A stretch of 64,000 nucleotides of DNA from Obrimoposthia wandeli (taxonomy: Eukaryota), in assembly GCA_977020255.1 (NCBI GenBank), contig CDROCS010001382.1:372001-436000 (forward strand), read 5' to 3'. A model generated the notes under the pieces. It was not told where the DNA came from. It was given only the letters and a program-made list of their open reading frames with translations, and ran no database searches. Each line of letters begins with the position of its first letter. The stretch's first letter is position 1. Made by a program: the position numbers and the translations under genes. This document shows, one piece after another, positions 8,876 to 57,312 of the stretch.

Positions 8876-8953
8876 CCAAAGAGATCACATGCAATCTAAA
8901 AATAGATTTTCAAATAATATAAATAGAACAAACCTGTTTATAATTAATCAGAA

Positions 8954-18780: not shown

Positions 18781-18789
18781 TTTGTAAAT

Positions 18790-35135: not shown

Positions 35136-38100
35136 TATGGTGTTTCTCCTGTGGATGCATGTACTGATGTTCTGTAAGCAAATAAGCATGGTGCATTGTG
35201 TTAATCCCAATCTGTTTGATTGTTATTTGTATATGATGCCATCATATCTTCTAAGGTTCTGTTAAATCTTTCTACTAATCCATCAGTTTGAGGATGGTAT
35301 GGTGTTGTGTTGATCTTTTTTATTTGAAATATTTCAGCAATTGACGCTAGTGCGTTATTTATAAATTCTGGACCTTAGTCCGTCAATAATTTTTGGGGTG
35401 CACCGAAAGTAAATATTATTTTTTCAACTAAAACCTTCGCGATGGTTTCAGCCTTGTGATATACTGTTGGAAAAGCCTCTGGCCATAATCGGAAAATACT
35501 ATTATATATCGATTTCCTCGGGGTGTTTCAGGTAATGGCCCCATTACATCCATGGCAACAGTTTCCATGGGGGCTGATGGATACGGAATTGGTTTTAATG
35601 GTATTTTAGTAGTTCTTAATGTATTTTTCCGTCATAGACATATTTCACAAGTCTGGCACTAATTTTTTACATCTTCTTTCATGTCAATCCAATAGTATTT
35701 TAAGTTTAATCTTGAGTGTGTCTTTTTGGTTGAAAGATGTCCTCCTAAAACTCCGTTATGATATTGAAGGAGTAATTGGCCTTGTATTTCTTTAGGAATA
35801 ACTAGTGAATACAGATTTTATCGTTTAGATAATGTAAAATATTGTTACGGAATTTATAACGAGATTCATGAATTTTTAAATGTTTTCTTAATTTTTCATC
35901 TGTTGGAACTTGATTGATGGTGATGTACTTAATTATTTGTTGTATTTCCGTATCTTTGCTTTGAATATCGGTGATTACTTTTTCATCATATCGAGCCTTG
36001 ATTATTGTAAAAATATTTAATTCGGTGTCATTGGAATTTATTACATTTACTTCTTCTCTTATTCTAGATAGGCAATCTGCGTTGGCATTTGATTTACCTT
36101 TTCTATATTTAATTTCAATATCATATTTTTGTAAAATTAACGCCCATCTCATTAATCTAGATGTCGTATCTTTATGATTTAAAAGCCTTTTTTTACGTCT
36201 TTGATCTGTATAAACATAAACTTTTCGACTTAATAAGTAATGTTTAAAGTGTTCCATAGCAAAGCAAATAGCTAGGCATTCTCTTTCTATTGTTGAGTAA
36301 TTTATTTCATGTTTTTTAAGACTTCGGCTTGCGTAAGCTATTACATGATCTTTTTCAATTTTGTCTTGTTGTCCTAGTACTGCTCCTAACGCATAGCCAC
36401 TTGCGTCAGTCATTACTAAAAATGAATTGTTGAAATTAGGATATCTAAGTATAGGGTTTTCAATCAATTTTTGTTTTAAGTACTCGTATGACTCTTGTTG
36501 TTCCGTTTCCCATTCAAACTTTTCATCCTTTTTAATAAGTTTATTTAACGGTGTCGCTATTTGTGCGAAGTTTCTGATAAATCTGCGATAATATCCTGCA
36601 AGTCCTAAAAATTCTTGTATATTTTTTACTGTTTTTGGGATCGGAAAATTCTTTATTTTTTCTATATTACTTTCATCTGGTTGAATTCCTTTTGCAGACA
36701 CTGAGTGACCTAGATAATTCACTTTGTCTTTCATTCATTCACACTTTTTTGGTTTTAATTTTAAACCTGCTATTTTTAATCTAAGAAATACATTTTCTAA
36801 ATCTTTTAAGTGTTCTTCAAAATTTTTTGAAAAAATAAGAATATCGTCGATATAGACCATGACATGTGGCTCATGCATCTCTGAAATGTTGCTGGAGCAC
36901 CTGTTAATCCAAAAGGTAAAACATTAAATTCGTATAATCCTTCTCCTGTTGAGAATGCTGTTTTTCTTTGTCTGATTCGTCAATCTCTATTTGCCAGTAT
37001 CCCCTTTGTAAATCTAAGGTTGTAATTATTTTTGCATTTTTTAGTTTATCCAAGATTTCATCGATTCTTGGGAGCGGATATGTGTCTTTTTGTATAACCT
37101 CGTTTAATTTTCTGTAATCTACGCAAAATCTTAGTGAACCATCTTTCTTTTTTACTAAAACAACTGAAGATGTCCATGCTGAAAAACTTCTTCTTATGAT
37201 TTTATTCTCTAACATTCCTTCTACCTGTCTTTGAGCTTCTTCTCTGTAAGCGTATGGGATACGGTAAGGTCGTTGTTTAATTGCTGTATTAATAGTTAAA
37301 GGAAGATTATGTTTAATTAAATCTTTTCGTCCAAGGTCATATTCATTTTTTGCAAAAATTACGTCATATTTTTCTATTAATGATTTTAGTTTTGATTTCT
37401 CATAATCATTTAATTTAATATTTTCAAATTTTACAGTGGAATTGTCTTCTATTTTTTCATTATTAATTAATTCTATATTTTCTATAACACTTATTTTTCC
37501 AAGGCGCATTCCTTCTTTTAGATGAATCTCGTTTATGTCTGCATTTAGTAATCTGATTGGTATTGTATTATTTTTTATTTTACAAATTATATTTGGTAGA
37601 ACGTAATTTAGTGTTTCTTGTTGATATTTATAAGGTTCGAATAATATGTCTTTTTCTGTAATTATGTTAGTTTCTAGTTGTAATATTGTTTCTGTTCTAG
37701 GTTGAAGGATGATGTCTCCTTTTATTTCTAATTCGTATTCGCTTTTAGCGTTTGATCTGTAAATGTCTTTAATTTGATTTTTCTCGAAGTCAAAATGAAA
37801 TTTTTTTCGTATTTTCTTTATGTATCTATTCCAATTATCATCTGGCATGGACAATTTTTCATTATTCTAGTAGGTATTTTTATAAATTTATCTCCTATTT
37901 TAAAAATGCAATCTAATTTACCAATAATATTTACGGGTTGACCGTTTGCTGCTGTTATTTGACTATTATCTCTGAGAAGTAGTAATATTTGGTGTGATTT
38001 TAAAAAAGACTCGTCCAAAACTGTTACTCTTGATCCTGTGTCAATTAGAGCTTTTAATTTGTACTCATTTATTTCAACTTTTACATAAGGTCGTCTATCA

Positions 38101-39778
38101 TTATCCATTTGATTTATAGTATATATTGTTGGTTCAGTTGATTTTTGAACTATTATTTCTTCTTTATATCTTTCTAAATCGGGGTATTGTGCAGATTCTG
38201 TATTCTCTTTATTTTTATTGTCTACCATCTTCTGTAAATTTTTTTTCTCGCATTTCGTTCGATAATGCTTTCACTGTATTTTGATGATGGTTAAATATAA
38301 GAAATTTTGCTAAAAATAGAAAACATCCCAAAATTAGTTTCCATTTTAATCCACCAACTTTATAAATGTAATATGTAGATAAAATTTGACTCAAAAGGAT
38401 CTTAAAGCATATAAGTAGTGCATATATTCCTACAAGTCCAGAAAATGCTTGACCAAAAATTAAAAATTTTCCCATATTTTTGATATTGTATTTTGTGTAT
38501 CTTTTATAAAATGATTTGGAGAAAGTAATAAATCCTAATCAGGACGGCCAATTCCGCCTGGTACTGATCTTTCAATAATTTGTGTTAAAATTCGTGATCT
38601 AATTTGAGGAAATAAAATTTATTTTCTTAATTTATCTATGTCTTCTTGTATGTATATGCCTTTTGTATTTAGTTCATTGTCTGATTTTATTTCTATGTCG
38701 TTATTGAGGTTGGTTAATTGTAATTTTAATGGTTGAGCAACTATGTCTCTCCTTGAGAGTGATATCCAAATATCTTTTGAGATTTGATAATGAGGTGCCA
38801 TTATGTTTGAGCAATTCATTTCCTTTATACTGAATGTATTAAAAAGTATTATTCTACAAATAATGAATGATTTTTGTATGAAATTGGTAATTCTTTAGTG
38901 CATTTATTATGATTTCATATATTAACTATTACTTTTTTACATTGATAAGTATATAGCACTTATCCCATTACTCTTCCAAAATTACCATCAGCTAGCGGTA
39001 ATAATGGTGTTATTAATTCTGGATTTGTAGCAATAATTGCCAATTTTGTTTTCAAATTTTTTTGGTTTAATTTACAGTCATTCATTATTGTTTCTCTATA
39101 AATTGCTTCTATTGTCATTAATCCTTTGTGATAAAAATAATCTAATTTATTATTAAAATAATCGTAATTTTTTATGTTAAATTTTGTTGGTGTCGTTTTT
39201 GCATTATATATTTTTTCTTTACTTAAATATATTCCTTTATAATTAGTTGTATAAATAGAGTGTCCACATCGGGATTCCTCTTTCTTTTTAATAAATCGCA
39301 TTCCAGAACCTTGTTCTGTTGACATTAAAATAGTTGGGGTTGATGTTTTTTGAATTTTTCTTGTCCTATATTTTTTATGTATATCTTTTGGCACTCTTTG
39401 ATCAAGTTCCGAGTCATCTTTAAATCTTTGACCTTGAATTATTTGAAAATTTTCAGATTTAAGGAGTATTAATTTACATTGGTCTGTTTTTAACTTATAA
39501 TATAAAATTGAGGATCCTGTATTGCAATGATCTATATTTGCTTCGCAAAATGGCATAGTTACCATATTATTTGTAGATGGGTCAAATGTTGCCTTGAACG
39601 TTCTGAGTTCTACCTCAAAGTTTTTTATAACGACTAAGCCACTTTGTTTGACTCCCATCACAACGTATGTACCTGTTGTACATGCACCGTCAGATTTTAT
39701 TGTTCCTACTACTGTAATCATTTGTTGTATAATTTTATTTTTTACTGCTCGTACTTTAATTTCTCTATCTATTCTTAG
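35135..39778 (-). mobile_element. Gypsy-type retroelement A with a glycoprotein (env-like) gene directly upstream of PR-RT-RH-IN; no gag or LTR visible
   Basis: Env-like 39778-38215, PR 38228-37818 (KALIDTGS), RT 37300-36500 ([19 protein letters not shown]), RNase H (TDASGYALGAVL, ERECLAI), integrase 35800-35135 (HLSTKKT..RLKLKYYW, VAMDVMGP). Contains frameshifts. Confidence 0.92.
38215..39778 (-). pseudogene. Chuvirus-like/herpes gB-like (class III) envelope glycoprotein with C-terminal TM region, 5'-truncated
   Basis: GTIKSDGACTTG; RCGHSIYTTNYKGIYL; YFNNKLDYFY; DCKLN..NLKTKLAI..TNPE; GNFGRVMG; GIY..EDI..LR..ILFP; TM FLIFGQAFSGLVGIY...YYIYKVGGLKWKLILG. Confidence 0.8.
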
Positions 39779-42240
39779 TGTCACGTTTCTGGAGTGGAAG
39801 ACGGCAATGTTTTGCAGCGACATCGTGAAGTTCTTCCCTTGCAGTATGGCTCACAAGCTCATCAGAACAGTTAAGCATTCTGAAAGCATGAACCACCGCT
39901 TGGACGGCGTAGTCGTCAAGGGCAGAAGTTAGGCCAAGGCCACATTGTTTGTTGGATGCATATAGATAGGAGTTACTGGTTGTTTTCGGCAGATGAACTA
40001 TACTTTTGATAACTCCTCTAATACGAATATCATAGCCACCTTGAGACAATTTTCGACTATCTTCAGAACGCTCGTAAGAGTGCAACAGTGCAAGTCGTAT
40101 CCATGCCAGTCTCAGAGTGAATGTAAGCCTAGAGATAATAAAAGTTTTTTAGGTGTCGATCATTTGCCAAGGCCGAAGTGTGCTTTTGGCAATCTTCTCC
40201 ATGTCGAAAACGGCCGTATCGAGAAGTTCTTTAGGATCTTGTCTGTGAGAATGACCAAATTCTACACCTAAGTAGCGATAAGGCGGGTCCAAAACTGTCG
40301 GCATCTCGCTTCCACTGATCATAATTCGGTACACCGGACTCACAAAACGCGGCTGGGGCAGGATATTACGCCTGCTGCAGTAGAGAATACTGGGGTTCGA
40401 AGTTTTCTCAGGAGAGGCTGGATCAGCAGGGAGTCGCAAGTATCCGCACTTTCCAGGGTTAAATTTGAGATTTGACCAGGTTGCCATCTCTTCAGCTTTG
40501 TCAACCATAGCTTATAGGACATCATTGGTGCTGGCAAATAAGGCCAAATCATTGGCATAGGACAGTACATCGATCCTCTTACCATGTAATTGAATGTCTG
40601 TATCTGGAATTCTAGATATTTCAGAAAGGACCGGGTAACCTGAAAAAAAAGTAACATTGAAAGTGGGCAACCCTGTCTAACTCCACGACTGATCGGGATT
40701 GCTCCAGTTGTAAGTAGTCCACAGAAGTATCTGGAATCACATTCAGAGTAGAGTGACTTGATCAGCTTACATGAGTTATCACTTATCCCCATTCGTCGAT
40801 ATGTCAAGGAAGCCAATGTGGACCTTCAAAATGAAGTTGTCTCGTTTCCGACTCTCGATGATGCTGTTCAGGATGAATGTATGCTCAGTGCACTCCTCGA
40901 AATTCCCAGCACGTTTCTGGAGAGGATGCAGCAGCTGGTTCTTGGTAATTCATTCTTGTATTTGCCAGGCAAGACATGACGTGAATACCCTGTAGCATGT
41001 ATTCAGCATGGCAATAGGACGCCATGAAGAAACCTGGTCGTACTTACCATATTTGTTTGGTTTGGGTATCATCAATGTCCTAAACTGCCGCCAGGTTGTT
41101 GGCATGATTATATCAGTCATAATCTTGTTGAATAAGCTGGTGAGTAGAGCACAGCTTCGGTCGCAGTATCGTATGTCTGAGTAGAGTATATTGTCCTCTC
41201 CGGGTGAGAAGTCAGATATACTCTTCAGAGTCATGCAACCTCGGTAGGAGTCATGTTTCCAAAGCAGAATTCCGGACCGGGCTTAATATTGGGACAGCAG
41301 TTCCAATCAGTGGCGGCCAGAGCTGGAGACTTCGATTCACAATATTGTGTAAGATTCTCCAGAAATGGATATGTTTCAGCAGATGTGGAATCCAGGATCT
41401 TGTCAATGACTGACTTCCGATTATGCCAGTACAACTGTGGAAGACTGTTAATGTCATCGTCATCTCTAGGGATAACATATGGTATAAAGAGAGACTTCTC
41501 CTTTCTGTGTCTGGGACGGTAGATGTGAGATAGAATCCCATTAGAGAGCTCCTCAATATCAGCATCGACACTGTTAGTCAGCAAGTCCTTTGCGATTTCG
41601 ATCCAGAATGCTTTACATAACAAAGGTTTCTGCTGTTCAACAACAATTTTCCTTTTAACAGGAGCAAGTTTTTTGAGATTCAACTCAATCAGCTTCTTCC
41701 TGATATTCCGGACGTCTATATTAAGCAGAGGTTACTTACTGGATAACCGTGATGCAATGCCACATATAACGGGACCACTGTCGCCATGGGTAGTGCGGCA
41801 CATCTGGAAGTCGTCACATATAGAAGAACTAAATGTAACATTGTTGGCCCGTGTAAAGATATCGATGTATTGAGTGAGTTTCTCTCCCAAACACTTAATA
41901 TCCAATTGCGGGGTCAGGCCGGTGTAGTTGAAGACGCAAGAGATCAATCTAATCCTGTTGTAAGTGAACAGGATCCAGCCTCTACCAGATATTTTGTGCG
42001 GGGCAATGACCAAATCGATGTCTTTGAACATTTTGAAAGTAATGTTCTCGTCAACGAATGATTCATCGCCCAGAAGTAAGCACCTGGTGGCGACAGGAGA
42101 GAGCACAAGTCCCCACTCGTTGTTGATTGTTCTGTTAAGCAGCACCTCCACATTTTTGGGCGAGAAGAAAACAGTACTCCTAATTTCCTCAATGCCGTCG
42201 GTGCTGCTCACTCAAGCGAAGACTGTCCAGAATCACAGCC
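39779..42240 (-). mobile_element. Non-LTR retrotransposon (R2/NeSL-like RT), decayed and 3'-truncated
   Basis: IPKPNK...SSWRPIAMLNTCYRVFT; GVRQGCPLSMLLF; SYANDL (YADD equivalent); NLKFNPGKC; PYRYLGV; LRPWQMID. No endonuclease domain is retained. Confidence 0.88.
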
Positions 42241-42339
42241 ATCAAAATTAATAGTTAAAGGTGTAAAATACTATTTTGTATATCAGGAAGTTGATAAAAT
42301 ACTAATAAAATGTTCAGTTCACTGAAGCTATCATGAATG

Positions 42340-43790
42340 TTACTGTGGCCATATAAGTTTCTTGTCGAAAATCACACCTACCACACCGTATAAACCACAC
42401 AAGGTTTTTCCAAGAGATTGAGAATACGCATTTCGAACAGAAAAATAGAAATAGATAAGAATTACACACCTGATGCAAAAATTGGTGTGAGACGATATGA
42501 AACAGTTACAAGAATAGGTCAACGATAGAATGATGGATCGTGCCGTGGAGGAACAAAAAAATGTGCGTGGTACCAAAGTAACATCCTTAATAATGGACAT
42601 GACTTACTAGATTGAATTAAAAACATGGACAGCCAGTTTTGATAAAACTACAAAAAGTATGATGAAGTTTCCGGAGAATAACAGTTACATCTTGTGATAC
42701 AGGCGAATCCACAATTGTATATCAAGTAGACCCAAAACAATTTTCGTTGATATTTTTGAAAGAAATCAAATTTAATAAAATAAAAGGTTTCCTGTATAAT
42801 AAAGGAGGAGAAGGATTCCATAACAAAACAGGACCAATTCCTACGACGCCAACACCTACGCTGTTAATGGCAACATCAACAGAAGAAGGATTGATATTTA
42901 TCAAAATAGGAAATAAAGCGCGATGCGGAATGACTGTTAGTACTACAAACTATCCTGGAATAGTTTTGTCAAAAGAATCAATAGCGATGACTGGAACCAA
43001 ACTAAAATCTAGTGATATGCAGCTACACATGTATTTTAATAATAAAATTGATTTCTATTATCATAAAGGATTGATTCAAATGGAACAGTTATATCAAATG
43101 ATGGTTGAGAGAGATTGCCAATTAAATAAGGAGATCATAAGAACTAAGTTGGCACTAGCTATTACAAATCCAGACACGGTAGCCCCATTATTGCCTCTAG
43201 ACGAAGGAGTATTTGCTAAAACTATGGGAGAAGTAATTTATACGTACAGGTCTAAGAAAAGTGCTGGTACAATTGAGAAAAACGACTTGATGTACAAGTG
43301 AATTACTTGTAACGTATAACTCAAAACCACTTTTTGTAGAACCAATAACAAGGATGATACTTCCAAAGGACACTCCAACTAAAGAGATAAGTTGCTCTAA
43401 TATAATGGCAGTTGAATACCAATTATCGAGAGACTTATGGATAACGTTGCCTGACCGTAAGTAAACAAACACTCCAACTAAGATTTTTAAAGTGCAGGTT
43501 TATATAATGAGGAAGATCTAAAAGTGGCCTGGAACGAAATAATGTTTCCAGTAAGAACATCCAGAGTACTTAAGGAAATGGTACATTGTACATTACCACC
43601 AGGAGCTACATATGCGAATTTTGATATGATATTGTCGGCAAGTCATTTCAAAGAAGCGGCACACCATACTCGTAGAAAATGTGAGGAAAATTCCTTGTAT
43701 TAGGACAATTATTTTCAGGTATCATATTTATTTATGTTATAATAAAATTTGTACATTAAATTATAACTCAAGTGTTGTCAGAAATTCAAA
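42340..43790 (+). pseudogene. Chuvirus-like/gB-like envelope glycoprotein of element B
   Basis: DGSCRGGT; RCGMTVSTTNYPGIVL; YFNNKIDFYY; DCQLNKEIIRTKLALAITNPD; FAKTMGEVIYTY; GLYNEEDL...IMFP; TM FLVLGQLFSGIIFIY. Clearly homologous to 38215-39778. Confidence 0.8.
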
Positions 43791-44570
43791 CAGGAAAAGC
43801 ACCTAATTTTGACAATAGTGACCAGATTCCTGAAGAAAAAAATAATCAAAATAAACTGTGTTGTTATTTAAATAGTCGAATTGAAGATATATTCGAAGTA
43901 ATGCGAGAAATAAACGAATGTGACAAACAATATCGAGAAGTAACTTTCGAAGATCCAAGACTTAAAAAATGGGCAAAAAAGGGATTTTTTGCAACGAAAA
44001 AGGATGGTAAATATGTAATTAAATGCCACGAGTGCAAGAAAGAACGAATTATTTACAGATATACTCTTGAGCTACCTAAGAAATGTTTAAATTGCGAATT
44101 TTGTAATTAAAAAAACAAAAAGAAGCAAAAAGAACGAATAACAGAATGTATAGTCGAATATCAAATCACACTTAAAGAGATTTTGGCTCAATGTCATTCA
44201 TGAGAAGATTATATCCAAAAGAAGTAGACAGAATCAGAGAATTGGTAGAATTAAAAATAAAAACAACGCTAAATGGATAGAGATAAATTTTAAAATTATT
44301 ACGAGATAAAATTGACAGTACAATTGAACCAAAGCAGAAAGAGTACATACATGAACTAGAATACATGCTAGAAGATCCAGAATGCGCAGTATACATGGTC
44401 AACAAAGTAGAAGTTGCCTTTTTACCGTGTGGACATGTGAGAACATGTCGGATATGTGCAAACGAAATGGTAACATGTCCGATTTGTAGAACAATAATAG
44501 ATCGACAATTGAGAAATATCAGATTTCACTATCCAAACAAAGAAATTAGACCGATAAAATGTAACAATTC
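43772..44570 (+). pseudogene. IAP-like (degenerate BIR, linker, C3HC4 RING) between env and protease
   Basis: KWAKKGFF...VIKCHEC (BIR-like); KEYIHELEYMLEDPECAV...VEVAFLPCGHVRTCRIC...CPICRTII..LRNIRFH. Confidence 0.78.
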
Positions 44571-44963
44571 GATAAATACTTTATACCACATGGGAAATAT
44601 ACATGGAGCACAGCGACCAGCAGCTATCATTAGGATGAACAATTTAAAAATAAAAGCCTTAATAGACACAGGCACAGTAGCATTGATAGTGAGTGAAGAT
44701 TATTTGACAGAGGAACAGAATCAACAATGTCAGAATCAGATAAATTCTTGGTATCGGTCAACGGAAACCCTGTAAACGTGACGGGAATATTACCATGTAC
44801 ATTTGTAATATGATGTAATACGACCACTATACCAGTTAGAATCATGAGAGAGTGTCATGAACTAACCATTTTAGGAATGGGTCAACTGTCACAACTCAAA
44901 GGAATAAGTATCAGAAGTGTAAAGTGTCGGTTCTAAAACAATAGCACACAAAGCCCCCCCCCC

Positions 44964-47700
44964 AATTAGTGCAATCTCTAAAGTTTAACATGTCATTATT
45001 AGTAAAAACCATAGGAACATTAATACTATTTACCCAAAAATCTGCCACTTCACCATTTATCAACTCAGTTAATTTATCTACAAAGTTTTTAGCACACTGC
45101 AGACCGTAATAACTGAAATATTGTATTGAATTATTAGTGTTGTTTTTCAAAATCATCCCTATAGATATTGGTTTATGAATGTGTTTGAAAGTATTATGTG
45201 GTTCGAGTATTGACTCAAAGTCGGCATATACAACAAATGGTGGCGCAATAGATTTAGACCAGTCGGAAAATTGACACTTGATCTCTTTAGGCATTGTAAA
45301 CAAGGTTGTTAAATCTGTATTAATATTACAATGTGCTCTGTGTTTGTCATATGAAATCGTGGTTCGAAATCCAAAAAGACATTTCTCACACCAAAAGAGA
45401 CGCACATTATATTTTTGAGTATTTAAAAGTCTATTCAGGTTTGTAATCCCTGTATAGTGATAATTACCGCTCTGTTCCAACAGCAACAAGTTTACTACTT
45501 TTTCGCACTGTTTAAGACTCGTTCTATAAATAACATTAACATCTGGGTTTTTAAACACTAGATGACTACTATGAGGCTCTACCTTTGTAGGTTTATAGGA
45601 GAATACTGTTATCGCTATATTATTGAGTTTTTTAAACGCCTTGATACCGTCTATCCTCATAGGACCAGGCTCACATATAAGTTCATTTAAATAATCATTA
45701 TAGTTTTCAACTCTTTGTCTGTTTCGATTGAAATCTTTATAGTGTAGGATACTGAGAACAGCGTATTTAAAACACTGATCATCAGTATTATTTACGTTCA
45801 CTATAGATAGTGTTTTAGCAAGCGCAACCGGGGTTTTTATAAATGATGATCCTGCTACGTTTGAAAGTGCGGTAAATTTAAAGGATACCAACAGAATTTT
45901 AAATGCTGACCATCCCGAACTCATATCCTTATAAATTTCAATTTTATTGTTGAGCTCAACTGTTCTTGTAGTGATAAAATCTTGTTCAAAAATATTTGCT
46001 TTACAGCTTACATGCTATGTTTTATGTTGACCCTCGTTATTGACAAATTCGGTTTCAACACCAAACTGTATTTTACAGGGACCAAACACATCTATACTGC
46101 TAGTAAGTTCAGTTAGCATAGTATCGTTAATGTATAGTTTAAGCATGTTTAATCCACTAACATCAAAAACAAGGTTTGATTGAATTGCACCTCCTATTTG
46201 ATTGTTAAAAGTTAATGTATTATCTGAATTAATTGTAACAATATTATCAAAGTCATCATCCGTAATAGTTAGGAGTGAGTCGAAAAAATCATTTTCTGTT
46301 ATAAACTCGTCCTGATCTATAAGTTCATCAATATTATTATTATTTAAGATTTCATTAGGGCTTAAAGGCTCAATAATTTTTACAACTTCAGGATAAGTAT
46401 CAATTTCTACAACACTATCCGGTTCCCACGAGTCTACCACATCAAACTCTTCAGTAAAATTATTAGTTTTTGCTATTTTATTGTTGTCTATTGTTGGTAC
46501 TCTCATTACTTTACGTTTGTATGCTGACTTTTTAGACTTAAAATACGTCAGATGATCCTTATGATCATTATAAAATGTTTGATAGTCAATACAATATAAC
46601 ACATCACAATGTGGACAAATAAAACCGCTTTTAAATTTATAATATTTAAGCATTTCACTATGACATTCTATTCCATGATTAACGTTTGTGCAATACTTGT
46701 ACAATGTACATAAGTTACTTCCTCCACGAAGTTTAGGGTATACATGGATAATAGCCCCCTCATGTAAAACATCACCGATAATAGCTTCCCTTTCAAAGGG
46801 CATGCCATTACGGTTAAAATAAATTTGATCAGTCTCAAAGACTTCATATAATTTATTTGCCAGATCTGTAATTTTCAGACCTGGACTAATATTAATGGGT
46901 TTGCAAGACCCTAATAAATTTGCAAATATTGTTATATCTGCTGGTAGTTTTCTCAATCTACGCAGCTTCTGACGAAATCTTTTACCTTTCCTACCTTCTG
47001 TTTTAAGTTTACTTAAATCAATATTTTGATTTTTTACTTTCTTTAATTGGTTAAAATATTTTTTAAACGGGATATTTTCAAAACCCGAGTATATCTCATT
47101 TACGTTGAAATTTTCTACTGAATTAACAGGTGACCCAACAGGTGTTCCTGGTTTAAAAAGTAAGGGGTAACCTCTTGATTTAATTAACTTATTCTGCGAC
47201 CCCATTCCAGGAGTTAGACTGCCCCGCGTTACTGGGCAGCTATCGCAGTCGGGAGAATAAGATTTTATATCCCTTATATCCCCAAAAAGTTTATATAAAT
47301 GAGTATCATATGGAGAATGAGAATGAGAATGAGAAGATGAAGAAGAAGAAGAAGGAAGTTGAGAGTGAGAAGATTTCTCAAGAGATAAAAAAACTTTTGA
47401 CATTTTCTTCTTTTCATCATCATCATCATATATTGTTGTTGGCATATTCTTCTTTTTCTTCTGCTTTCGGCTTCTTTTCTTAGTAGGAGCATGGTGCGTT
47501 GAAAGCCATGGTGCGATTGATATTGGCAGTGGTGTGACACTCTGTATTGCTAAAATAAATTAAAAATAATAATAATAATAATCAAAATTACCTTTCTTCA
47601 CAGGTGTCGCATCCAAGTCGACATCATCATCATCATCAGCCACTGCAGGCTTCATCGTCCATCTTTTCTTAGCATTATACGCGAAAATAATTTTTGACAT
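44964..47700 (-). pseudogene. PolB N-terminal part (spliced leader exons, ubiquitin-like domain, zinc motif, terminal-protein region, vOTU-like domain, exonuclease I), one in-frame stop, truncated by the TIR
   Basis: ORFs 47445-46015 and 45924-44911 are in the same frame, separated by one TAG. Motifs: SSGW, GSSFIKTP, NNTDDQCFKYAVLSILH, YHYTGI, VVYADFESIL. Leader exon 47700-47592 is flanked by 39-nt and 42-nt GT-AG introns. Confidence 0.9.
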
Positions 47701-48163
47701 CTAAAAAAATAATAATAAAAATAAAATCAAAATACTTACTTTTCGAATTGTGAATGAAATTGATAAATGACACTACACTGATTGTTTATATATGGTTCAC
47801 AATCAGTGTAGTTGCTGCCCTAGATGTACACGTCACACATCACGTGTGTACTTACAAACTAGGAATGCGTAATAAAGACTCTTTATTCCCTAGTTGCTAC
47901 ACACGTGATCATAAAGGTTAATTACGGTCAATCAATTATGAATATTTTCATAACCGATATTCACACCGTTAAACTTTAAATTTTTTAAAATAATTAACAC
48001 CATTAATTTTCTCTTAATTAGTAGATTTTAAATCTATTTTTTAATTTATCAAAACTCAAAAAAAAAAAAAAATTTAATTTCGATGGGACAGCTATTTATA
48101 AAACAAATACGATTTTGAATACAAATTTTATTACCAATCAACACAAATAAAAAGGTTTGACAT

Positions 48164-48487
48164 TTATATAGTTTGATCATACAACCATAAGATACATAGT
48201 GGACCGCAATTAGTAGTCAGTGGGTTTTGAGAACGAATTTTGTTGTAATATACATGTTTTCCTTGAGACTCTACATGCTTGATAAGTTTTCCCGGATAGT
48301 ATACTCCAAGAGGGTCATACACATGTACAGAATTCCGTCTCACGAATAACGCAATCCAGTGTTCTCCAGGAAGATTTGAGGTATGTGTATTGACAATATA
48401 TCCCCCAGGCGTTAATGTTGGGATTTTTTCCAACGGGTATACACCCTTAAATCGCGGTCCGAGCAGCAAACTAGTTATTTCATTCAC
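48164..48487 (-). CDS. Polinton adenain-like cysteine protease
   Basis: FKGVYP...YIVNTH...GEHWIAL...YDPLG...QNP.T.NCGPLCILWL (His, Asp, Gln, Cys). Confidence 0.9.
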   Translation of the reverse strand: MNEITSLLLGPRFKGVYPLEKIPTLTPGGYIVNTHTSNLPGEHWIALFVRRNSVHVYDPLGVYYPGKLIKHVESQGKHVYYNKIRSQNPLTTNCGPLCILWLYDQTI

Positions 48488-48571
48488 CTGAACAGTACTT
48501 TGGATTAATAAAATCTTAAAACATAAATTAAAAACTCACTTCATACAATCACACGTCGGCCTTTAGTTATT

Positions 48572-48982
48572 TCAAACTCGTTTTCTTCGTTTGTTTATAC
48601 TAGATGCTTTCTTTCTACCACTACCCTCTTGCTTTTTAGTTTCGGGTTCAACCGTTTGTGCTGCTTCACTTGCTTTACGTTTACGTCGATTTTTAATAAT
48701 TTTAACAACTGTACCAAAAGCTTCCTTAGCCTCCGGTATGGCTCCGGCAACTTCCCCTAGTGCATGTTGTTTAAGCATTGGTAACACAGATTTGTTGTTC
48801 ATTATTACATCTTGAACTGTTTTAACTCCAACACGGCCTAATCTTTTCAGTATAGGGAATGCTAACCGTCCCAATGTTTTCAACCATCCCGAACCGTACT
48901 GTTTACCTACAAAATATGGTAATTCACCACCTTGTTGAGGTCCACTAAATGTCTCAATTATATTCATAACTGTAATGGACAA
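48572..48982 (-). CDS. Polinton core/structural protein with QxGxG motifs, C-terminus cut by a deletion
   Basis: QQGGELPYF.GKQYGSGWLKTLGRLAFPILK; KQEGSG. The P3 homologue continues past KRRKRV. Confidence 0.75.
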   Translation of the reverse strand: MSITVMNIIETFSGPQQGGELPYFVGKQYGSGWLKTLGRLAFPILKRLGRVGVKTVQDVIMNNKSVLPMLKQHALGEVAGAIPEAKEAFGTVVKIIKNRRKRKASEAAQTVEPETKKQEGSGRKKASSINKRRKRV

Positions 48983-49003
48983 CTATTTTTGAATACAGAT
49001 TGT

Positions 49004-50173
49004 TTATACCTGATCTATACAACGGACATGTATGGTAAGGGATACTTTTGCATTGTTGGAAAAACTTATTGGAACACCTGCATCGTTTCTAATATTAATT
49101 TCAATGTTTGAGATTACATTTGATGCTAAAGGGATATACATGGGTCTGTATATTGCGATATTAACCGTGTCTCCTGGTGCTTTATTTTTATCTAACCATA
49201 TAGATTTTAATAAGGGTATCATTTGACCTCCAACGTTTACAGGTTCACACAGACTAGAATACAAGTACATGTGATCAAACTCGTAATTTAATCGAGGTAG
49301 TCCAGACCCGTTGCCCGTAAATCGTGATTTATCTAACCCTAATACATACCATAAACGTTGATCAAATCCAATATGCTCAATTCCATTCTTTAATACAAAT
49401 TTTATTAGCTTATCATTATCATCAATATAAAATCTTTTAAATATGACGTCGCATTTAGATTTAATGTATGCTACTAATGCATTTACATTATTATTATTTA
49501 AATCTTCTGTAAATACAATTTTCTTGTTGTATGAACCGGTTTTATAATGCATATATTGTAAATTATGTGCACTGCAATCAGGTCTGATAGACGTTGATCC
49601 AAGTAAAACTCCTTTATCATCAGACTCGAAACCTTCTGAAGTTAATGTATTGAAAATGAATCCTAATTCATTTTTAGCGTCAGCATCCATCTTGATATAG
49701 AATTTTTTGTTGTTGACGGATTTTATTAGTACAACATTATCCTTTTTATCAATACCTACACCAACTGTGCTTAAGGAAATAGAAAGCTTTGCAATCTTAT
49801 CTTTAGACGTGACGGTGAGTTTTGATATTTTATTAATTGTCTTTTTAATAACTTTTGGTTCTGATTTATCACCATGCAATTGCGGTTCTTTCTTTTCTAC
49901 TTCTACTTGAGTATGAATTACTGATAAAGATATTTGATCAGTCTGTTGATTGGAGAATTTAATAGAATAATTAATTTCACTGCCCTTATTTAAAATAACA
50001 GGAGTGTTTGTGTACGTAAATTCAGTTAATGCCGCCTCCCATTTACCATTTAACGTAATTGGATTCTCCCAATCTACAGTGAATAAGGAAGCCATATTAT
50101 TAGGTTGAGTTTTCGGACAACTATTACTCGGTAAAATCATATAGAAGTCTCTATCTGGCTTGCTTTGATCCAT
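49004..50173 (-). CDS. Polinton minor capsid (penton) protein
   Basis: FYMILPSNS...QPNN.ASLF...ITLNGKWEAALTEF; YLYSSLCEP..VG..IPLLK...YIPL...IEINIRND.G. Confidence 0.9.
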   Translation of the reverse strand: MDQSKPDRDFYMILPSNSCPKTQPNNMASLFTVDWENPITLNGKWEAALTEFTYTNTPVILNKGSEINYSIKFSNQQTDQISLSVIHTQVEVEKKEPQLHGDKSEPKVIKKTINKISKLTVTSKDKIAKLSISLSTVGVGIDKKDNVVLIKSVNNKKFYIKMDADAKNELGFIFNTLTSEGFESDDKGVLLGSTSIRPDCSAHNLQYMHYKTGSYNKKIVFTEDLNNNNVNALVAYIKSKCDVIFKRFYIDDNDKLIKFVLKNGIEHIGFDQRLWYVLGLDKSRFTGNGSGLPRLNYEFDHMYLYSSLCEPVNVGGQMIPLLKSIWLDKNKAPGDTVNIAIYRPMYIPLASNVISNIEINIRNDAGVPISFSNNAKVSLTIHVRCIDQV

Positions 50174-51171
50174 GTTGATTCAGAATATCCATGCCACTTT
50201 AGGAGATATTGTTTATTCTTACCACGGCCTTTAGATTTTACGACTTCTTGGATACGGAAAAGTGTAGGTTTATCAATTACTTGTAGTTCAGGTTCATAAA
50301 ATTTCCCTGTTATTACATTACAGTCATCATCAACTATAGAGTACATTACAGGATTTGCACGTTTGTCTATTTTCTCTATCCTAAACACTTCATCACTCCA
50401 ATTCTGATCAAAGTTTTTAATAAAGGGGCTACCACTAAACTTTGATATCCGAACATAATCACCAGTCTTATGTTTGGGTTTATTAACTTTATCGACTTGA
50501 TTACGACTCAACCAAATTTCCATTGCATTTTTATCATTAATATCGACAGGTCTCAATCCGTCTAAACCTCTATGCTTACTGTGATTGTATGAAGTCATAA
50601 CTTTTGGTAAAACGTCAACCCATCTTTTATTGCCTTGTGCAATAAAATGTCTTTTTAATCGATCTCTCAATGTTCTATTAAACCTTTCAACTAGGGCAGC
50701 TTTGAATTGTGAAACTACAGAGTAATGTTCAATATTTAATTTTTTAAATAAACTACCTACATTTTTGTTGTAAAACTCTTTACCCTTATCAGTTTGCACA
50801 TGTATGGGGACAGTTTTATCAGTCATTATACTTAGAGCAGCCTCTATATCCTTACCTGATTTAGATTTTACAGGTAATGCACGCGCATACCTTGTAAACA
50901 CGTCAATACATGTTAAAATATACTTGTTACCATCATTTATACTTGCATATGGTATCATTTCCATCAAATCGGCCTGCCATAAATCGTTAGGACCGCTTGT
51001 TCTGTATGCTCGAGTCGGGAACTTCCGCTTCATTGGCTTGTTTAGACTGTATGCTAGCTGATTGCTCAGCCATTTCTGAGTTTTCTTTTGACTCGATTGA
51101 CTTTTTAATGATAGTTTGCCAATGCCGCTGTACCCAGCTGGGTTTTCGGGATCGTACCATATCGTTTCCAT
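50137..51171 (-). CDS. Polinton retroviral-like (RVE) integrase with C-terminal chromodomain, intact ORF
   Basis: WYDPENPAG; WQADL...YILTCIDVFTRYA; QTDKGKEF; KAALVERFNRTL; GDYVRISK; YLLKWHGY. Confidence 0.95.
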   Translation of the reverse strand: METIWYDPENPAGYSGIGKLSLKSQSSQKKTQKWLSNQLAYSLNKPMKRKFPTRAYRTSGPNDLWQADLMEMIPYASINDGNKYILTCIDVFTRYARALPVKSKSGKDIEAALSIMTDKTVPIHVQTDKGKEFYNKNVGSLFKKLNIEHYSVVSQFKAALVERFNRTLRDRLKRHFIAQGNKRWVDVLPKVMTSYNHSKHRGLDGLRPVDINDKNAMEIWLSRNQVDKVNKPKHKTGDYVRISKFSGSPFIKNFDQNWSDEVFRIEKIDKRANPVMYSIVDDDCNVITGKFYEPELQVIDKPTLFRIQEVVKSKGRGKNKQYLLKWHGYSESTWIKASQIETSI

Positions 51172-51222
51172 TACAACAAGTGAATTTAAAATCGATGTTT
51201 GGTATGTTATTACCCATTTTGT

Positions 51223-51552
51223 TTATGAGTTTATCAATTTTGCAATCAAAGGAGATACTAAAGTAGCAATTATAGGTATTAATGCACCGATAAAACCACC
51301 TTTTTGTTTTAGAATTACTCTACGTTTACCAGTTTTACTTTTAGTATTCACTAAATCAAGTAAAGCTTTTTGATGTTTTCTAAGGTTATGTTTATGATTA
51401 CCGATTTTTACAGTACCTTTTGTAATATTAAACAAGACTTCAACCAACTTATCAATAACAAAGGGTGGAAATGACTTGAGTATACGTTGTCTATATATGC
51501 TTGGAGCCTTGATTAAAGCCTGAAAGTAGGGAAGTATAGATTTTGATAACAT
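51223..51552 (-). CDS. Polinton small core protein with KGG site and amphipathic C-terminal helix
   Basis: LVEVLFNITKG...KRRVILKQKGGFIGALIPIIATLVSPLIAKLINS. Confidence 0.75.
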   Translation of the reverse strand: MLSKSILPYFQALIKAPSIYRQRILKSFPPFVIDKLVEVLFNITKGTVKIGNHKHNLRKHQKALLDLVNTKSKTGKRRVILKQKGGFIGALIPIIATLVSPLIAKLINS

Positions 51553-51583
51553 GTTTAATGAATTAAACTATTTGCAATATTGT

Positions 51584-51904
51584 TTATAGTTTAATCCATT
51601 TACCAACTAGTTTATTTACACGCTTTTTATCCGACTTCTTAACCGACTTTCCAACTGCTTTCTTAACAGGTTTCTTCTTTAATGGTTTCTTTTTTACAGG
51701 TTTTCTCTTTACTGTCTTTACCGATTTCTTTAATGATTCATCGACTACTTTACGCTGATGAAGCACTGATTTAATAAGATTTTTAATATGAGCATTCTTC
51801 TTTAACATCAATTTGTTATCATTAGCGTGTAATTTATCACCCGGTCTCCATTTAGGTCCAACTCCACTAGGCATTGTTTCTTTCATAAATGACATGATTA
51901 ACAA
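51584..51904 (-). CDS. Lysine-rich basic protein (possible DNA-condensing core protein)
   Basis: KKPVKKKPLKKKPVKK repeats; lies between the ATPase and the core protein. Confidence 0.6.
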   Translation of the reverse strand: MLIMSFMKETMPSGVGPKWRPGDKLHANDNKLMLKKNAHIKNLIKSVLHQRKVVDESLKKSVKTVKRKPVKKKPLKKKPVKKAVGKSVKKSDKKRVNKLVGKWIKL

Positions 51905-52548
51905 GTAGATAGGCTTTTCTTTTGTTTATATACAAAATCATTATTGAAAATATCGGTTCTCACGCGTAAATCGTCTGGACATTCCTGTGTAAAATCTAAA
52001 AACAAGTATCCATGAGGGTTAGTTGTTGCATCTTGAAATGCGTCAATCAAATATTGCTTATTACAAGGGAAAGCTTGACGGGCAACAAAGTCGATAACCG
52101 TTTGATCTCGCGGATTTTTAAATAATACTAGATAATGTACATTTAAATTCCGAGTACGGTGTTGACCGCCTTAATGAAAGAGATTTTGAGTGATAAAAAT
52201 CACTGTTACATTTGTATGTCTAGCTATTTTGGTAAACAGGTTATTAAAACCCGACTCTTTATTTGCTTCATCAAACAAATCATCAATTACAATGACATCT
52301 CCTGAATTTAACCTCTCAGACCATTTATTATCAAAACCATTAATAAAATGAATACCCTTCAATTTACCTAATTCTGTTCGTGTTAGACCAGATTCACCTA
52401 CACCTCCGTAATGCCAGTATATTCTACTAAACTTTTGATTAAACATGTTTTTATTTTGAAGTAATTTAGTTACAAAATGTGTTTTCCCACTCCCACTAGG
52501 TCCTACTGTTTGGTAAACCGCGTTATTTTTAAGTTTTATCATCATCAA
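51898..52548 (-). pseudogene. A32-like packaging ATPase with one in-frame stop
   Basis: VGPSGSGKTHFV; IVIDDL; VIFITQNLFH*GGQHRTRNLNVHYLVLFKNPRD...DLRVRTDIF. Confidence 0.92.
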
Positions 52549-52575
52549 TAATAATAAATCAAAAGAAACGATTGT

Positions 52576-52842
52576 TTATATACGTTTTATTAATATATAC
52601 AACAACAGAGAATTAAAAATTGATGTAGAAAAGGTTATATACATCATGTTTGAACGATTAATTTGAACAAATTTTTCAAAATCCTTAATCCGTTTGATAT
52701 CTCTATAGACATGGGTGCAAACAATTTCCTTTATATTATTACGAGAAAGTCCATCAAAACTAGAAAAGTATTGAACTCCATTTATTGTTCCGTTTATAAT
52801 TTCCTCGACTGCATCATCAACTAATTTATCGTTTTCATCCAT
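52576..52842 (-). CDS. Hypothetical Polinton accessory protein
   Basis: 88-aa ORF co-oriented between IAP and ATPase; no motif recognised. Confidence 0.45.
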   Translation of the reverse strand: MDENDKLVDDAVEEIINGTINGVQYFSSFDGLSRNNIKEIVCTHVYRDIKRIKDFEKFVQINRSNMMYITFSTSIFNSLLLYILIKRI

Positions 52843-52860
52843 TTATATAAATCATAAATT

Positions 52861-53760
52861 TCAATTGTTTATACCATGAAATTTTACATTTCTTACTCTC
52901 CGTTCGATCAGACATCTGCATACTGGACATGAATGTAACATTCTAGAACATGATATACATGTATTTACATGTCCACAAGGGAGAAATACTACTTCAATAT
53001 GATTATTTAAACATACTACACATTCGGGTACCTTTAAAATGTATGAAAGTATATTTATATATTGTTTCTCAGGTTTCATTTCTAAATTAGATAAATCACA
53101 AAGCAATTCAAATAGTGAATTGTATTCACCATATCGCATCATTTTATATTTTAAAACAGATTTTATTCTATCTTTTGTGAAAAACTTTTTCAAATATCTG
53201 ATTTGGTTTGTATCCATCAACATATCGAATTTCTCGATAGTTAAAGGATATTCAATTATACAATCTGTTTCGATTTTCTCAATAACATTAGCCTCATTAT
53301 AGGGTTCTAAACTGTTTGAATAGCATATATCAGGTAATTTTATATCAATATCTGATACATGTACTTTTCCAATCAATGGTGATGTATCAAAATCGATTTT
53401 CTTGTTCATAGTTTCAATTATTGGTACATTTGAAACATTTAACTTTAAAAGAAATGGACATGTAGGAAAAAATTTCATATGTTGCTTCATTGGTTTAAGA
53501 TACCATTCCCATTCGGATAACGCACCTTGACAGTATATACATTTTACTTTATCGGTTGAATCATCATCATGTTTATAAAATCCGGCTTTAGCTAAATCAT
53601 TTACAGATTGTTTCCCTTTAAAATTTATAATTAATGATCTTAATCTTTCACTTTCATGTCTATATTTCCAGTGTAAAACTTTCATTCTAGAATAACCTAC
53701 TTTTCGTCTAACTAAAACATCATCAACAGTTGTATAATGAAGTATATAATCAACTAGCAT
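52861..53760 (-). CDS. Inhibitor of apoptosis (single BIR + RING), intact ORF
   Basis: LAKAGFY...VKCIYCQGALSEW...PMKQHMKFFPTCPF; CVVC...VVFLPCGHVNTCISC...CPVCR. Confidence 0.93.
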   Translation of the reverse strand: MLVDYILHYTTVDDVLVRRKVGYSRMKVLHWKYRHESERLRSLIINFKGKQSVNDLAKAGFYKHDDDSTDKVKCIYCQGALSEWEWYLKPMKQHMKFFPTCPFLLKLNVSNVPIIETMNKKIDFDTSPLIGKVHVSDIDIKLPDICYSNSLEPYNEANVIEKIETDCIIEYPLTIEKFDMLMDTNQIRYLKKFFTKDRIKSVLKYKMMRYGEYNSLFELLCDLSNLEMKPEKQYINILSYILKVPECVVCLNNHIEVVFLPCGHVNTCISCSRMLHSCPVCRCLIERRVRNVKFHGINN

Positions 53761-53801
53761 TTCAAATCATGTAAGAATAAAATTCAACTAAAATTTATTG
53801 T

Positions 53802-54293
53802 TTATATCAAAAGTAAAATATCAGTTATTATCAAAGTCACATCAAAGTGATAATCCAAATCCTTGAGACCGAGTATGACCACTTTCCCGCTTGCAAATAT
53901 GTTGACGCACAGAGGATTGTGTTTTGTAAACCTTAAAGCAGGAAACAACTCAGGTTCGAACATGCATGCAGCTCCACACTTTTGAGACAACTTGTATAGG
54001 TTCACCTTCTTACCTAAATCAACAGTAACCGTTACGGATTGAATACGATCAATCTTTATTCTAAATGGACACTTGAGCAAAGTTGTAGTAATAGGTTTCT
54101 TGCAACCCATTATCCTGCATGCTCCTAATAATAACTAACTAACTAACTAACATAAAAACATACCTGAACGGAAGATTATAAGGGTATAATCCTTACACCT
54201 GTGCACGTACTGACATGGTTTCCCGGTTTTGAAGGGTAAGTGACTGATGTCTCCTTTAACTTTACCTTTATAATTAATATTTGCAAGATTCAT
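53802..54293 (-). CDS. TBP-like protein, two exons (39-nt intron at 54163-54125)
   Basis: Splicing gives LIIFRSG|ACRIMGCK. The second repeat is IQSVTVTVDLG...MFEPELFPALRF...VNIFASGKVVILGLK. Confidence 0.82.
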
Positions 54294-54416
54294 GATTGAA
54301 TTGATGGAAATAACCCAATCTATATATAAAATTTTTAAGCTAAAGATTATCCAATCAGAATCGAGTATGATATATATATAAGCTACCACTTTTGGTATAG
54401 AATTCATTATTTTGAT

Positions 54417-55067
54417 ATGAACTCTAAACAAACTAAATCTCTTAAGTTCGAGAAGCCACCACCAACAAGGCTTACAGACACAGATGTGGATACCGATGAT
54501 GATGATGTAGTTTTTATATCAAAACCAAAGAAGCAAACTATGACAAGCAACAACCATAAACAAACCAAGACTATCAAGATTGAGAAGCAAGCAACAAATG
54601 AGGATCTCTTTATTGATGATATAGTCTCTACACCCAAACATAAGAAACCGTTCAACAATAAACCATCAGATGTAATATTTGAGTCTAATGATTTGAAGTA
54701 TACCAAGCCGGTTATGTTTTATAACTGGCAAATTAATTTTTTGAAGACTCCAATCATATATGGATTCATGTTTCCGGTGGCTCTGAATAAGTCAAAATAC
54801 GATTTCAAGATACATAGATTAAATCCGTCAGATATTGATGATCTTAACAAAACCTTTGAGTCGATGCATCTCAACATCATAGTTGGGAATCATATAATAA
54901 TTCGAGCTGATCCTAATCTTTTCAAGCGAGATCACGACTTTAATGTTGACAATATGGGAACTGGACTCAAGTGGATGATCGTCATTTCAATACAGGGATA
55001 CAAAATCAACTGTACAGGTCTTCATAAACCAATCTGGAAAATTACTGATGGACAAGTTCGCTTATAA
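54417..55067 (+). CDS. Hypothetical Polinton protein (216 aa), possibly OB-fold/SSB-like
   Basis: Intact ORF opposite to the core genes; acidic and basic N-terminus; C-terminal beta-strand pattern VISIQGY...PIWKI. Confidence 0.55.
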   Translation: MNSKQTKSLKFEKPPPTRLTDTDVDTDDDDVVFISKPKKQTMTSNNHKQTKTIKIEKQATNEDLFIDDIVSTPKHKKPFNNKPSDVIFESNDLKYTKPVMFYNWQINFLKTPIIYGFMFPVALNKSKYDFKIHRLNPSDIDDLNKTFESMHLNIIVGNHIIIRADPNLFKRDHDFNVDNMGTGLKWMIVISIQGYKINCTGLHKPIWKITDGQVRL

Positions 55068-55254
55068 TTGTACTAATATATATTTATCGATGTTACTTTG
55101 CTTTCTTCAATATAGACTCCTACTATAAACAATAACGTTTCTTAAGATAAAAACTGCGATAGCTGTCCGGTTATGCGGGGCAGTCTAACTCCTGGAATGA
55201 GGTCGCAGTACTAAGTAAATTAAATAGTTGCAAATAAAAATTTGGGACGGTCAA

Positions 55255-55425
55255 TTGTGTTTAATTTCAAAATTTTAATTTTTAATTTTCATATTTAATT
55301 TGAATTAAAATTTAAATTTTTTAATTTCCATATTTAATTTTTTAATTTTTAAATTTTTTTAAATTTTAAGTTTTAATTTTTAAAATTTTAATTTTTAAAT
55401 TTTAAAATTTTGAATTTTTTAAACC
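55255..55425. repeat. AT-rich low-complexity tandem repeat ((T)nAA units) near the Polinton end
   Basis: ttttaatttttaattttcatatttaattt... array. Confidence 0.7.
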
Positions 55426-55496
55426 ATATACAAATGTTACAAAATATTAACCTACATAATCGTAAGTGACGCATAAGACCAAACAAATTTCGAGAC

Positions 55497-55666
55497 GTAA
55501 AGTGTCGGTTCTAAAACAATAGCACACAAAGCCCCCCCCCCCCGAACAAGGCACAAGGAAGAAAGCACATCTGTATGACTAAACAAATTTCAGATGTGCT
55601 TTGTTCCTTGTGCCTTGTTCGGGGGGGGGGGCTTTGTGTGCTATTGTTTTAGAACCGACACTTTAC
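55497..55666. repeat. 170-bp near-perfect palindrome at the right end of P2
   Basis: Arms of about 76 bp (TIR, poly-C/G, gaacaaggcacaaggaa, aaagcacatctg) around a 17-nt loop. Confidence 0.93.
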
Positions 55667-56499
55667 ACTTCTAGTATCGATTTACAAGATCCAAGATTGA
55701 AGGATAGCACGTCAAACAGACAGATAAATCAAATAGACGTGATCATAAAGAATCCAATAACAATCGGTAAAAGATCACAATTTGTCATCCAAGGTCACAC
55801 CTTGTCGGAAGATAAAGGACCAATCATATTCGAACCATCACGAAATTTTATAGAAAAATACGGATTGCCAATCGTAAGTACAGTATGTCTGATCGAGAAT
55901 CACAAAATACCAGTTAGACTAATGAACACAATTACATCCTGTTATATAGAGGAATGAGGTTGGGAAAGATAGAACAATTAGAGAATTCCACAGTATGTGC
56001 TATGAAATAGGATAAGAATGTAAATGATTCCGAAGAAATAATAATCAAATCAGAAAGACTGACAACAAAAGAAAAGAAACAACTACTTGATCTAATACAT
56101 AAATTTCCAAAAGTAATAGCTAAAAATCCGTATGACATAGGAGAAACCCCTGTCATAAAACACACAATATCACTGACAGAAAACAAAGTAGTCAGAAGAA
56201 GACCATATCGAGTACCATTACAGCTACAAGATAAATTAAAACTCAGATAGAATATATGTCTAAAACAGGAGTAATTAGACCTAGTTTTTTACCATTTTCT
56301 GCAGCAGTAGTGTTAGTAAAAACATAAAGATGGAAAAATGAGATTATGTATAGATTTCAGAGAATTGAACAAGATCACAAGAAAATACGTATACCCATTA
56401 CCCAGAAACGAAGAGATGCTTGATAAATTAGGTAATTCAGACTATTTTACGACATTGGATTTGCAAAGTGGCTACTGGCAAATTGAAATAAAGGAAGAA

Positions 56500-57312
56500 A
56501 TTTTTTTGTCAGAAATTAGAATTGTGTTTATTCTACTTTATGTTGGTGGTTTATGAGTTCCTTTTAAAATTTGTGTCTTAATTCAAACCCTTCATTATTT
56601 TTGAACAATACCACCACTATGTTTTGGGTTTTTGAGTTTTTTCTGGGTTCTAGGTTTTTTTAGGGCTATATTTAAATTTTTCTTATTTTTTCTGGGAGTC
56701 TTTGTTTTCTATTAAATTTTTTAGTGGTTTGGGGGAGTCAAAATATTTGGTATTTCTAGGTATTTCTATATTTTTTATTTTATTTATTATAAAAATTTTA
56801 GTATCTAGCACTAAAGTTTTAAACATTTTATTAAAAACTTAAAGATGAAAGCTTTTTTGTTAAATTAAAGTTGTTGGGGTTTTAGACTTTCTTTATTTTA
56901 TAAACTTTTTATTTTATTTTTTTGTCTATTATTTTAGGGTATTTTGGGTTTTTTTCAGGTTTTTTGAGTTTTCTCCTGTATTTATATTATTTTTTTAAGG
57001 TTTGGTTGTTTTTGTATTCTTTTTAGGATTTATTTTCTTCAGATTTTGTTTTTAATTGTTTCTAGTGTTTTTTCTTTGTTTATTACTATACATAAACCGG
57101 GACCGTAATTTCAGTATTGTTCTTAAACGTTTTGTAATTTCTATAGTTTTTTTGATTGTTTTTCCTAATTTTTTCAGTTTTATAATTGGTTGGAATGGCT
57201 TAGGTTTTAGTAGATTTATTTTGGTTATTTGGTATAGGAGTAACAGGTACTTTTTTCTGGTATGAAGACTTTTTTAGTCAATCGTTTTAGTGATGTTTTG
57301 TTTTTACTTGAA
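56500..57312 (+). other. NUMT: mitochondrial nad6 (3' part) followed by nad5 (5' part), inserted in the Gypsy RT
   Basis: Abruptly T-rich segment; ILLYVGGL(TGA=W)V (nad6); YM..D...SM..LI..PN...IGWNGLGFSSFILVIWY...GMKTFLVNRFSD (nad5, AGA=Ser). The RT is split between WQIEIKEE and ICEDGLYE. Confidence 0.88.

Follow-up and report, generated by a model that had tools for sequence, protein, structure and literature searches.

IAP genes carried by mobile elements have been described in settings that bear directly on the locus analysed here. BIR cargo is on record for the Burro giant Gypsy elements, of which Burro1/GYPSM1 of Schmidtea mediterranea exceeds 30 kb (PMC6431247), and the Burro1 BIR-RING protein, ‘B-IAP’, is reported to protect planarian stem cells and to aid regeneration (Lee et al. 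2026 Dev Cell, as cited in PMC13465017). In Polinton-like adintoviruses an IAP has been noted as a stand-alone accessory gene, with a TBP-like gene listed too, and the parts of that report covered here contain neither a flatworm element nor a link to an LTR-element IAP (PMC8502044). Nematode Mavericks carry captured cargo genes, which move between host species (PMC10680173, a meeting report), and Burro elements and Polintons are treated as piRNA targets only in the covered parts of PMC8532177. The window considered in the following, i.e. a stretch of 64,000 nucleotides from Obrimoposthia wandeli, contains a Gypsy-type element with an IAP (element B) that is interrupted by a Polinton with an IAP of its own. 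A sequence-only reading of this window had pointed to IAP cargo in planarian Burro elements, and this precedent is real (PMC6431247; PMC13465017).

Element B and its IAP

Element B of the window represents, in decayed form, a Burro-like Gypsy family of about 23 kb that is abundant in the genome. A search with its RING frame over the 1.35-Gb assembly containing the window returned 15,994 candidates, and all of the best 150, which were scored, match at 81–100% identity, the longest open frame being 4,996 aa. Two of the copies, read from end to end, measure about 23 kb from LTR to LTR and have LTRs of about 2 kb; their open frames are 4,996 and 4,873 aa long. In an unbroken copy, Pfam places gag, env, protease, IAP, protease, RT, RNase H, integrase and phosphatase in this order within one frame of about 5,000 residues: the env (Monjiviricetes_fusion, E 1e-94) lies in frame after zf-CCHC and before the protease, BIR and RING are both present in the cargo, and the phosphatase (DSPc) follows the integrase in tandem. 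The two aspartic proteases that flank the IAP (residues ∼2039–2128 and ∼2590–2680 of the C772 polyprotein) each exhibit the catalytic triad motif and are 29% identical.

The window copy retains, all on the forward strand, remnants of (i) the mononegavirus-type fusion glycoprotein, or env (42215..43779; Monjiviricetes_fusion E 1e-18; 79% DNA identity to unbroken B), (ii) the IAP (43766..44530; 72–78% to the unbroken copy by tblastn; RING E 4e-11), (iii) the second aspartic protease (44600..44912, assigned by comparison with unbroken copies), where the Polinton interrupts it, (iv) pol with RT, RNase H and integrase (55673..59464; Pfam and alignment to unbroken copies), and (v) the dual-specificity phosphatase (61050..61876; DSPc E 9e-15). 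With 79–87% DNA identity to young copies across most segments, this copy is old. The RING-region peptide quoted in the sequence-only reading maps to 44287–44530 (+) and continues in frame into the aspartic protease, and the statement that element B carries an IAP holds for the family and for the remnant in the window. It does not extend to an intact BIR in the window copy: a deletion of ∼1.2 kb at about 43779 took the intact BIR together with the first protease, Pfam finds no BIR over 43760–44110, and what is left (post-BIR linker, degenerate second BIR, UBA, RING and tail) is interrupted by stops and frameshifts.

The IAP is a family-wide feature of B at a fixed position. We inspected 65 B loci, 30 from the RING-frame search (the window's own included), 25 from a search with the stand-alone protein P0001 introduced below and 10 from a further search; all were chosen by IAP similarity, so that the count cannot cover IAP-free copies. 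UBA and RING were found in 65/65, the second protease in 64 (62 of them within 150 nt), the first protease in 56, and a Polinton marker in just one. The IAP sits at the same place in B copies that lack an adjacent Polinton, and the succession of RING and protease in 64 of the 65 loci identifies it as a family feature and rejects a local rearrangement at the window locus. Over 86 codons of the UBA-RING region, comparison of the window copy with young B yields dN 0.079 against dS 0.409, which shows that the IAP gene has been under purifying selection in B.

Element A (35802..39850, reverse strand; env, protease, RT and RNase H from Pfam and comparison with an unbroken copy) is a related Gypsy that was correctly read as being devoid of this insert. 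The one unbroken copy examined encodes gag, env, protease, RT, RNase H and integrase, with the protease directly after env and without BIR or RING. Since the A-to-B alignment runs up to B's first protease and resumes from B's second, the protease-plus-IAP block is extra in B; A's protease is closer to B's second (38%) than to its first (29%). Downstream of an element A polyprotein, a 387-aa exonuclease frame (RNase_T E 9e-7; L308:880-2043) is possibly accessory cargo. The window further contains exons of a host STAG/SCC3 cohesin gene (25363–30482, −), a foldback-like element whose long inverted repeats end in 15-nt tandem units (15484–16367), a BEL/Pao remnant with a Peptidase_A17 match (135–2233, +) and, between elements A and B, a non-LTR retrotransposon remnant read by eye (39765–42211, −).

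Polinton families 1 and 2 and their cargo

The element inside B belongs to Polinton family 1 (44913..55672, reverse strand). It is bounded by terminal inverted repeats of 51 nt that begin with AG and by a 6-bp target duplication (AGTATC), both of which are hallmarks of Polintons/Mavericks; these show that it entered element B by insertion and interrupted the protease region there. Pfam matches in the window copy represent an integrase (rve, E 3e-12), a packaging ATPase (Pox_A32, E 3e-6) and an adenovirus-like protease (Peptidase_C5, E 0.008). Judged against complete relatives, this copy appears to be devoid of the putative major capsid gene and of part of the putative polymerase. Other Polinton copies have long frames where the protein-primed polymerase and the capsid are expected, and the window's own frames gave no Pfam match; these frames are putatively assigned to polymerase and capsid by their motifs. 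About 1.2 kb present in other Polinton-1 copies is missing at window position ∼48577, and is probably the major capsid gene. At the right end (55497–55672), which is palindromic, the terminal repeat recurs internally, and the same arrangement is seen at C515 and C3375.

The Polinton-1 IAP is unbroken in the window (52861..53757, ORF to 53766, reverse strand; BIR E 2e-13, RING E 6e-11) and comprises BIR, UBA and RING in a frame of 301 aa. All 131 scored genome matches are 98–100% identical to it, 130 of them free of stops, and in 30/30 loci examined the gene lies between the TBP-like gene and the ATPase. Polinton family 2 is represented by an IAP remnant on the forward strand (about 7830..8880, ends approximate) with BIR, degenerate BIR, UBA and RING; unbroken 341-aa frames occur elsewhere and retain, as in B, the decayed second BIR. 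A small TBP-like gene adjoins the IAP in both families (window 53802–54134 and 9120–9431). The B and Polinton families are mutually nested: Polinton-1 resides inside B in the window and at C515 (466424), and B resides inside a Polinton IAP gene at C772 (48657–50216, 73549–74293).

Polinton family 2 and element B may also have a phosphatase in common. A phosphatase-like remnant in the window (9888..10565, forward strand) is 67% identical to an unbroken Polinton-2 frame (L274:6296-7087; DSPc E 1e-12), in which the catalytic motif is degenerate; B's first phosphatase has kept it. The Polinton-2 protein reaches 66.4 bits with that of B, as compared with 41.6 bits for the highest-scoring of 34 solved-structure matches, and weak similarity to B reaches about 40 aa further upstream. 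B's phosphatase, however, finds its best match in human DUSP10 (90.6 bits), above its score against the Polinton protein, so that the link is one-sided. A family search for host phosphatases, with the best 150 of 14,211 candidates scored, was swamped by apparent B copies. In B, some 1,700 residues separate the IAP from the phosphatase, and the two cargos were not one block. A common phosphatase cargo in Polinton-2 and B is thus suggestive only.

Kinship of the Gypsy-borne and Polinton-borne IAPs

The sequence-only reading had matched the RING-region residues of B to the Polinton ORF at 52861–53766 (−) and to a broken copy at about 7830–8880 (+), and both matches are real. Compared with the IAP of unbroken B, the window Polinton IAP is 48% identical over 138 aa (E 2e-35) and 34% identical over 140 aa of the BIR region. 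The C-C-H-C zinc ligands of the BIR are present in unbroken B and Polinton IAPs and missing in the window B copy. At the DNA level the similarity between B and Polinton IAPs is confined to short patches (at best 68% over 114 nt), and synonymous sites are saturated (dS 2.2 or undefined). A recent transfer is thereby rejected: judged from this saturation, the shared ancestry of the B and Polinton IAPs is old, and no trace of a recent event is seen.

The two segments that had been singled out as shared, i.e. the ‘unusual linker’ and the post-RING tail, fared differently. The match over the linker is real; the linker itself is the ordinary UBA domain of cellular IAPs, and alone it is no sign of special kinship, so that its status as a unique insert common to B and Polinton had to be rejected. 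It aligns with the same pre-RING region of 13 cellular IAPs, and its profile, run against 177,635 solved sequences with a cut-off of E 10, retrieved two matches, namely XIAP (2kna, E 0.097) and cIAP1 (3t6p, E 0.15), each weak alone; Pfam reports no UBA match. A structure model with a mean pLDDT of 49.5 predicts a clear BIR (Z-score 12.3 to XIAP BIR2; r.m.s.d. 1.8, 81 aligned residues) and a small helical bundle for the linker, for which no UBA is among the matches listed of this low-confidence model (best Z-score 4.5). The post-RING tail, as had been proposed, is common to B and Polinton IAPs: its pattern occurs in 7/7 clade rows and 0/120 of the cellular IAPs sampled, with the proviso that it was derived from the clade rows themselves and is hence not an independent test.

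A protein search of 1.84 billion representatives, with 150 matches listed, revealed three further proteins, P0001, P0108 and P0133, that share the derived layout, i.e. a single canonical BIR, a second BIR that is decayed or lost, a short UBA-RING spacer and an extended RING tail. P0001 (UPI000602CAF0), a stand-alone protein of 483 aa, has an additional segment at its N terminus; P0108 and P0133 are likewise stand-alone, on assembled contigs that measure 1.9 and 16.0 kb, respectively; P0157, a near-duplicate within the set of these three, was omitted from the trees. Of 167 other proteins, the 120 having two canonical BIRs and a terminal RING served as cellular rows; no flatworm is among those outgroups that could be named, and the tree is one without a flatworm host IAP. 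An IQ-TREE analysis of 40 rows (the clade rows, the 15 nearest cellular rows and every sixth of the others) unites B, Polinton-1, Polinton-2, P0001, P0108 and P0133 in one clade with support of 100/100. The same clade is obtained with FastTree from 127 rows including all 120 cellular segments, from the BIR only and from UBA plus RING only (22 rows; 100/99 each) and, at a lower support of 79/97, after six-state recoding. The clade rows are long-branched and differ in composition from the others. Placement of B with two cellular IAPs is rejected (AU p 4e-6), that is, the B IAP does not join the cellular IAPs sampled, among whose named members there is no flatworm. These alignments and trees thus give good support to a shared ancestry of the IAPs in Gypsy and Polintons.

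Within the clade, the two Polinton families pair (100/98) with B outside, and a grouping of B with Polinton-1 is rejected (AU p 0.004). P0108 and P0133 branch within the clade or at its base; a clade of the four rows from the genome itself is absent from the free tree, yet not rejected (AU p 0.097). With synonymous sites saturated and B not nested among the Polintons, these trees and distances point to neither direction of a transfer.

Routes of the gene and relation to described elements

We are inclined, on balance and from sequence comparison, to the view that a derived IAP entered mobile elements by a single capture from an animal host and subsequently moved, long ago, between Burro-like Gypsy elements and Polintons of the same host lineage. 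The mutual insertion of the two families would have supplied the contact for such an exchange. The direction from Gypsy to Polinton appears to be favoured, because reverse transcription would explain why a DNA element has a gene free of introns, and because of the two phosphatases that of the Gypsy is intact and that of the Polinton degenerate. From polyprotein biology one would expect the B IAP to be made between the two aspartic proteases and then cut out, and the Polinton IAP would be the product of a stand-alone gene. By analogy to what is reported for Burro1, either protein would target caspases or IAP antagonists for binding and ubiquitination and thereby prevent death of the cell during replication of the element. 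A bolder extension, in which Gypsy and Polinton traded both the IAP and the MAP-kinase-type phosphatase in a host without a cIAP/XIAP-type gene, whose BIR-RING anti-apoptotic function would then reside on thousands of mobile copies of two unrelated element classes, we consider rather unlikely.

The foremost alternative, possible but in our estimate doubtful, is that the host lineage itself evolved the derived IAP and that the Gypsy and Polinton ancestors each took it, the host gene being unsampled, missed or lost. B and the Polintons do branch deeply and apart from each other in the clade, viruses often capture IAPs, with many large DNA viruses carrying them, and P0001 with its extra N-terminal stretch could be such a host gene, as could P0108 and P0133. 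A planarian gene named xiap was, moreover, included in an RNAi screen, according to the part of PMC4993586 covered here. Against independent captures, the phosphatase would have to have been captured twice as well, and neither a close P0001-like gene nor a conventional host gene is among the scored genome matches. The search with P0001 returned B copies at 32–33%, and two conventional IAPs used as queries reached at best 45.5 and 41.8 bits. For the first, the eight highest-scoring loci that were read are Polinton copies; the matches of the second were judged by frame length alone. A BIR family search (best 150 of 12,110 scored; 30 loci read) gave one survivin-like and one BIRC6-like BIR, the rest being Polinton copies. 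These two host BIR domains, at L075 and L076 and labelled by reading of the sequences, are the only non-mobile BIRs among the 30 loci. No conventional host BIR-RING IAP is thus among the scored matches of four genome searches, which is not proof of absence: 72–150 of 10,000–20,000 candidates were scored in each, and intron-split genes can escape.

It is quite improbable, in our view, that a third mobile donor, e.g. a large DNA virus of these animals, supplied both elements. P0108 and P0133, located on assembled contigs and within or basal to the clade, might point to such a donor, but scans of viral contigs (3 loci) and metagenomes (80 kept loci) gave neither a locus scoring like a clade member nor a relative of the phosphatase, and fold matches to viral IAPs are generic (14–34% identity). 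The ESM Atlas returned generic IAP clusters only, and protein database searches with the B IAP and with the clade profile at greater lengths returned one and two generic IAPs, respectively, and no Burro protein. Finally, a copy taken locally from the Polinton 380 bases downstream, or a tree misled by the long branches of the clade rows, has a vanishing probability given the position of the IAP across the B loci, the patchy DNA similarity, and an architecture and tail that are common irrespective of tree inference.

Direct transfer thus is the better reading, and it draws on the absence of a host gene from non-exhaustive searches. Of the proposal that a gene passed between a Polinton and an LTR element, the common origin of the IAPs stands; direct transfer itself is likely and, with B outside the Polinton pair, not proven. 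If Polintons carry the IAP lineage of Burro1, with at least 130 unbroken and nearly identical copies in this genome, they would be a second candidate source of anti-death activity, and to ask where B-IAP came from would be to ask about traffic between RNA-based and DNA-based elements. If true, an exchange of cargo between both classes in one animal genome would constitute a clear case of a route that is usually only proposed. An IAP in Burro1 and IAPs in Polintons have each been published already, whereas the shared IAP lineage and the shared phosphatase appear to be new: no paper linking a Burro or Gypsy IAP with a Polinton IAP was found by title or abstract start, and Lee 2026, Grohme 2018 or their supplements may discuss Polintons.

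Compared with Burro1 by published description, not by Burro sequence, element B is alike in having one frame near 5,000 aa, CCHC knuckles in gag, a mononegavirus-type env in frame, the order gag-env-protease, BIR and RING cargo, and a very high copy number. Going by this architecture, the host would be a triclad. It differs in its length, about 23 kb with LTRs of ∼2 kb as opposed to more than 30 kb, and is hence termed ‘Burro-like’ and not Burro1. Two proteases around the IAP and a tandem phosphatase after the integrase, as found in B, are not named for Burro in the covered part of PMC6431247. In B, MATH, BCL2 and ankyrin gave no Pfam match and ubiquitin a weak one (E 0.13), Pfam being less sensitive than the HHpred of that study (PMC6431247, as covered). 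When compared with XIAP and cIAP1, the B and Polinton IAPs share the BIR fold, UBA and RING, but have a single canonical BIR, a short UBA-RING spacer and a different, longer post-RING tail. The Polinton IAPs described here resemble those of Polintons/Mavericks (adintoviruses) in being stand-alone accessory genes. Whereas the cargo of nematode Mavericks crosses host species, the Polintons described here have their IAP cargo in common with a different class of element.
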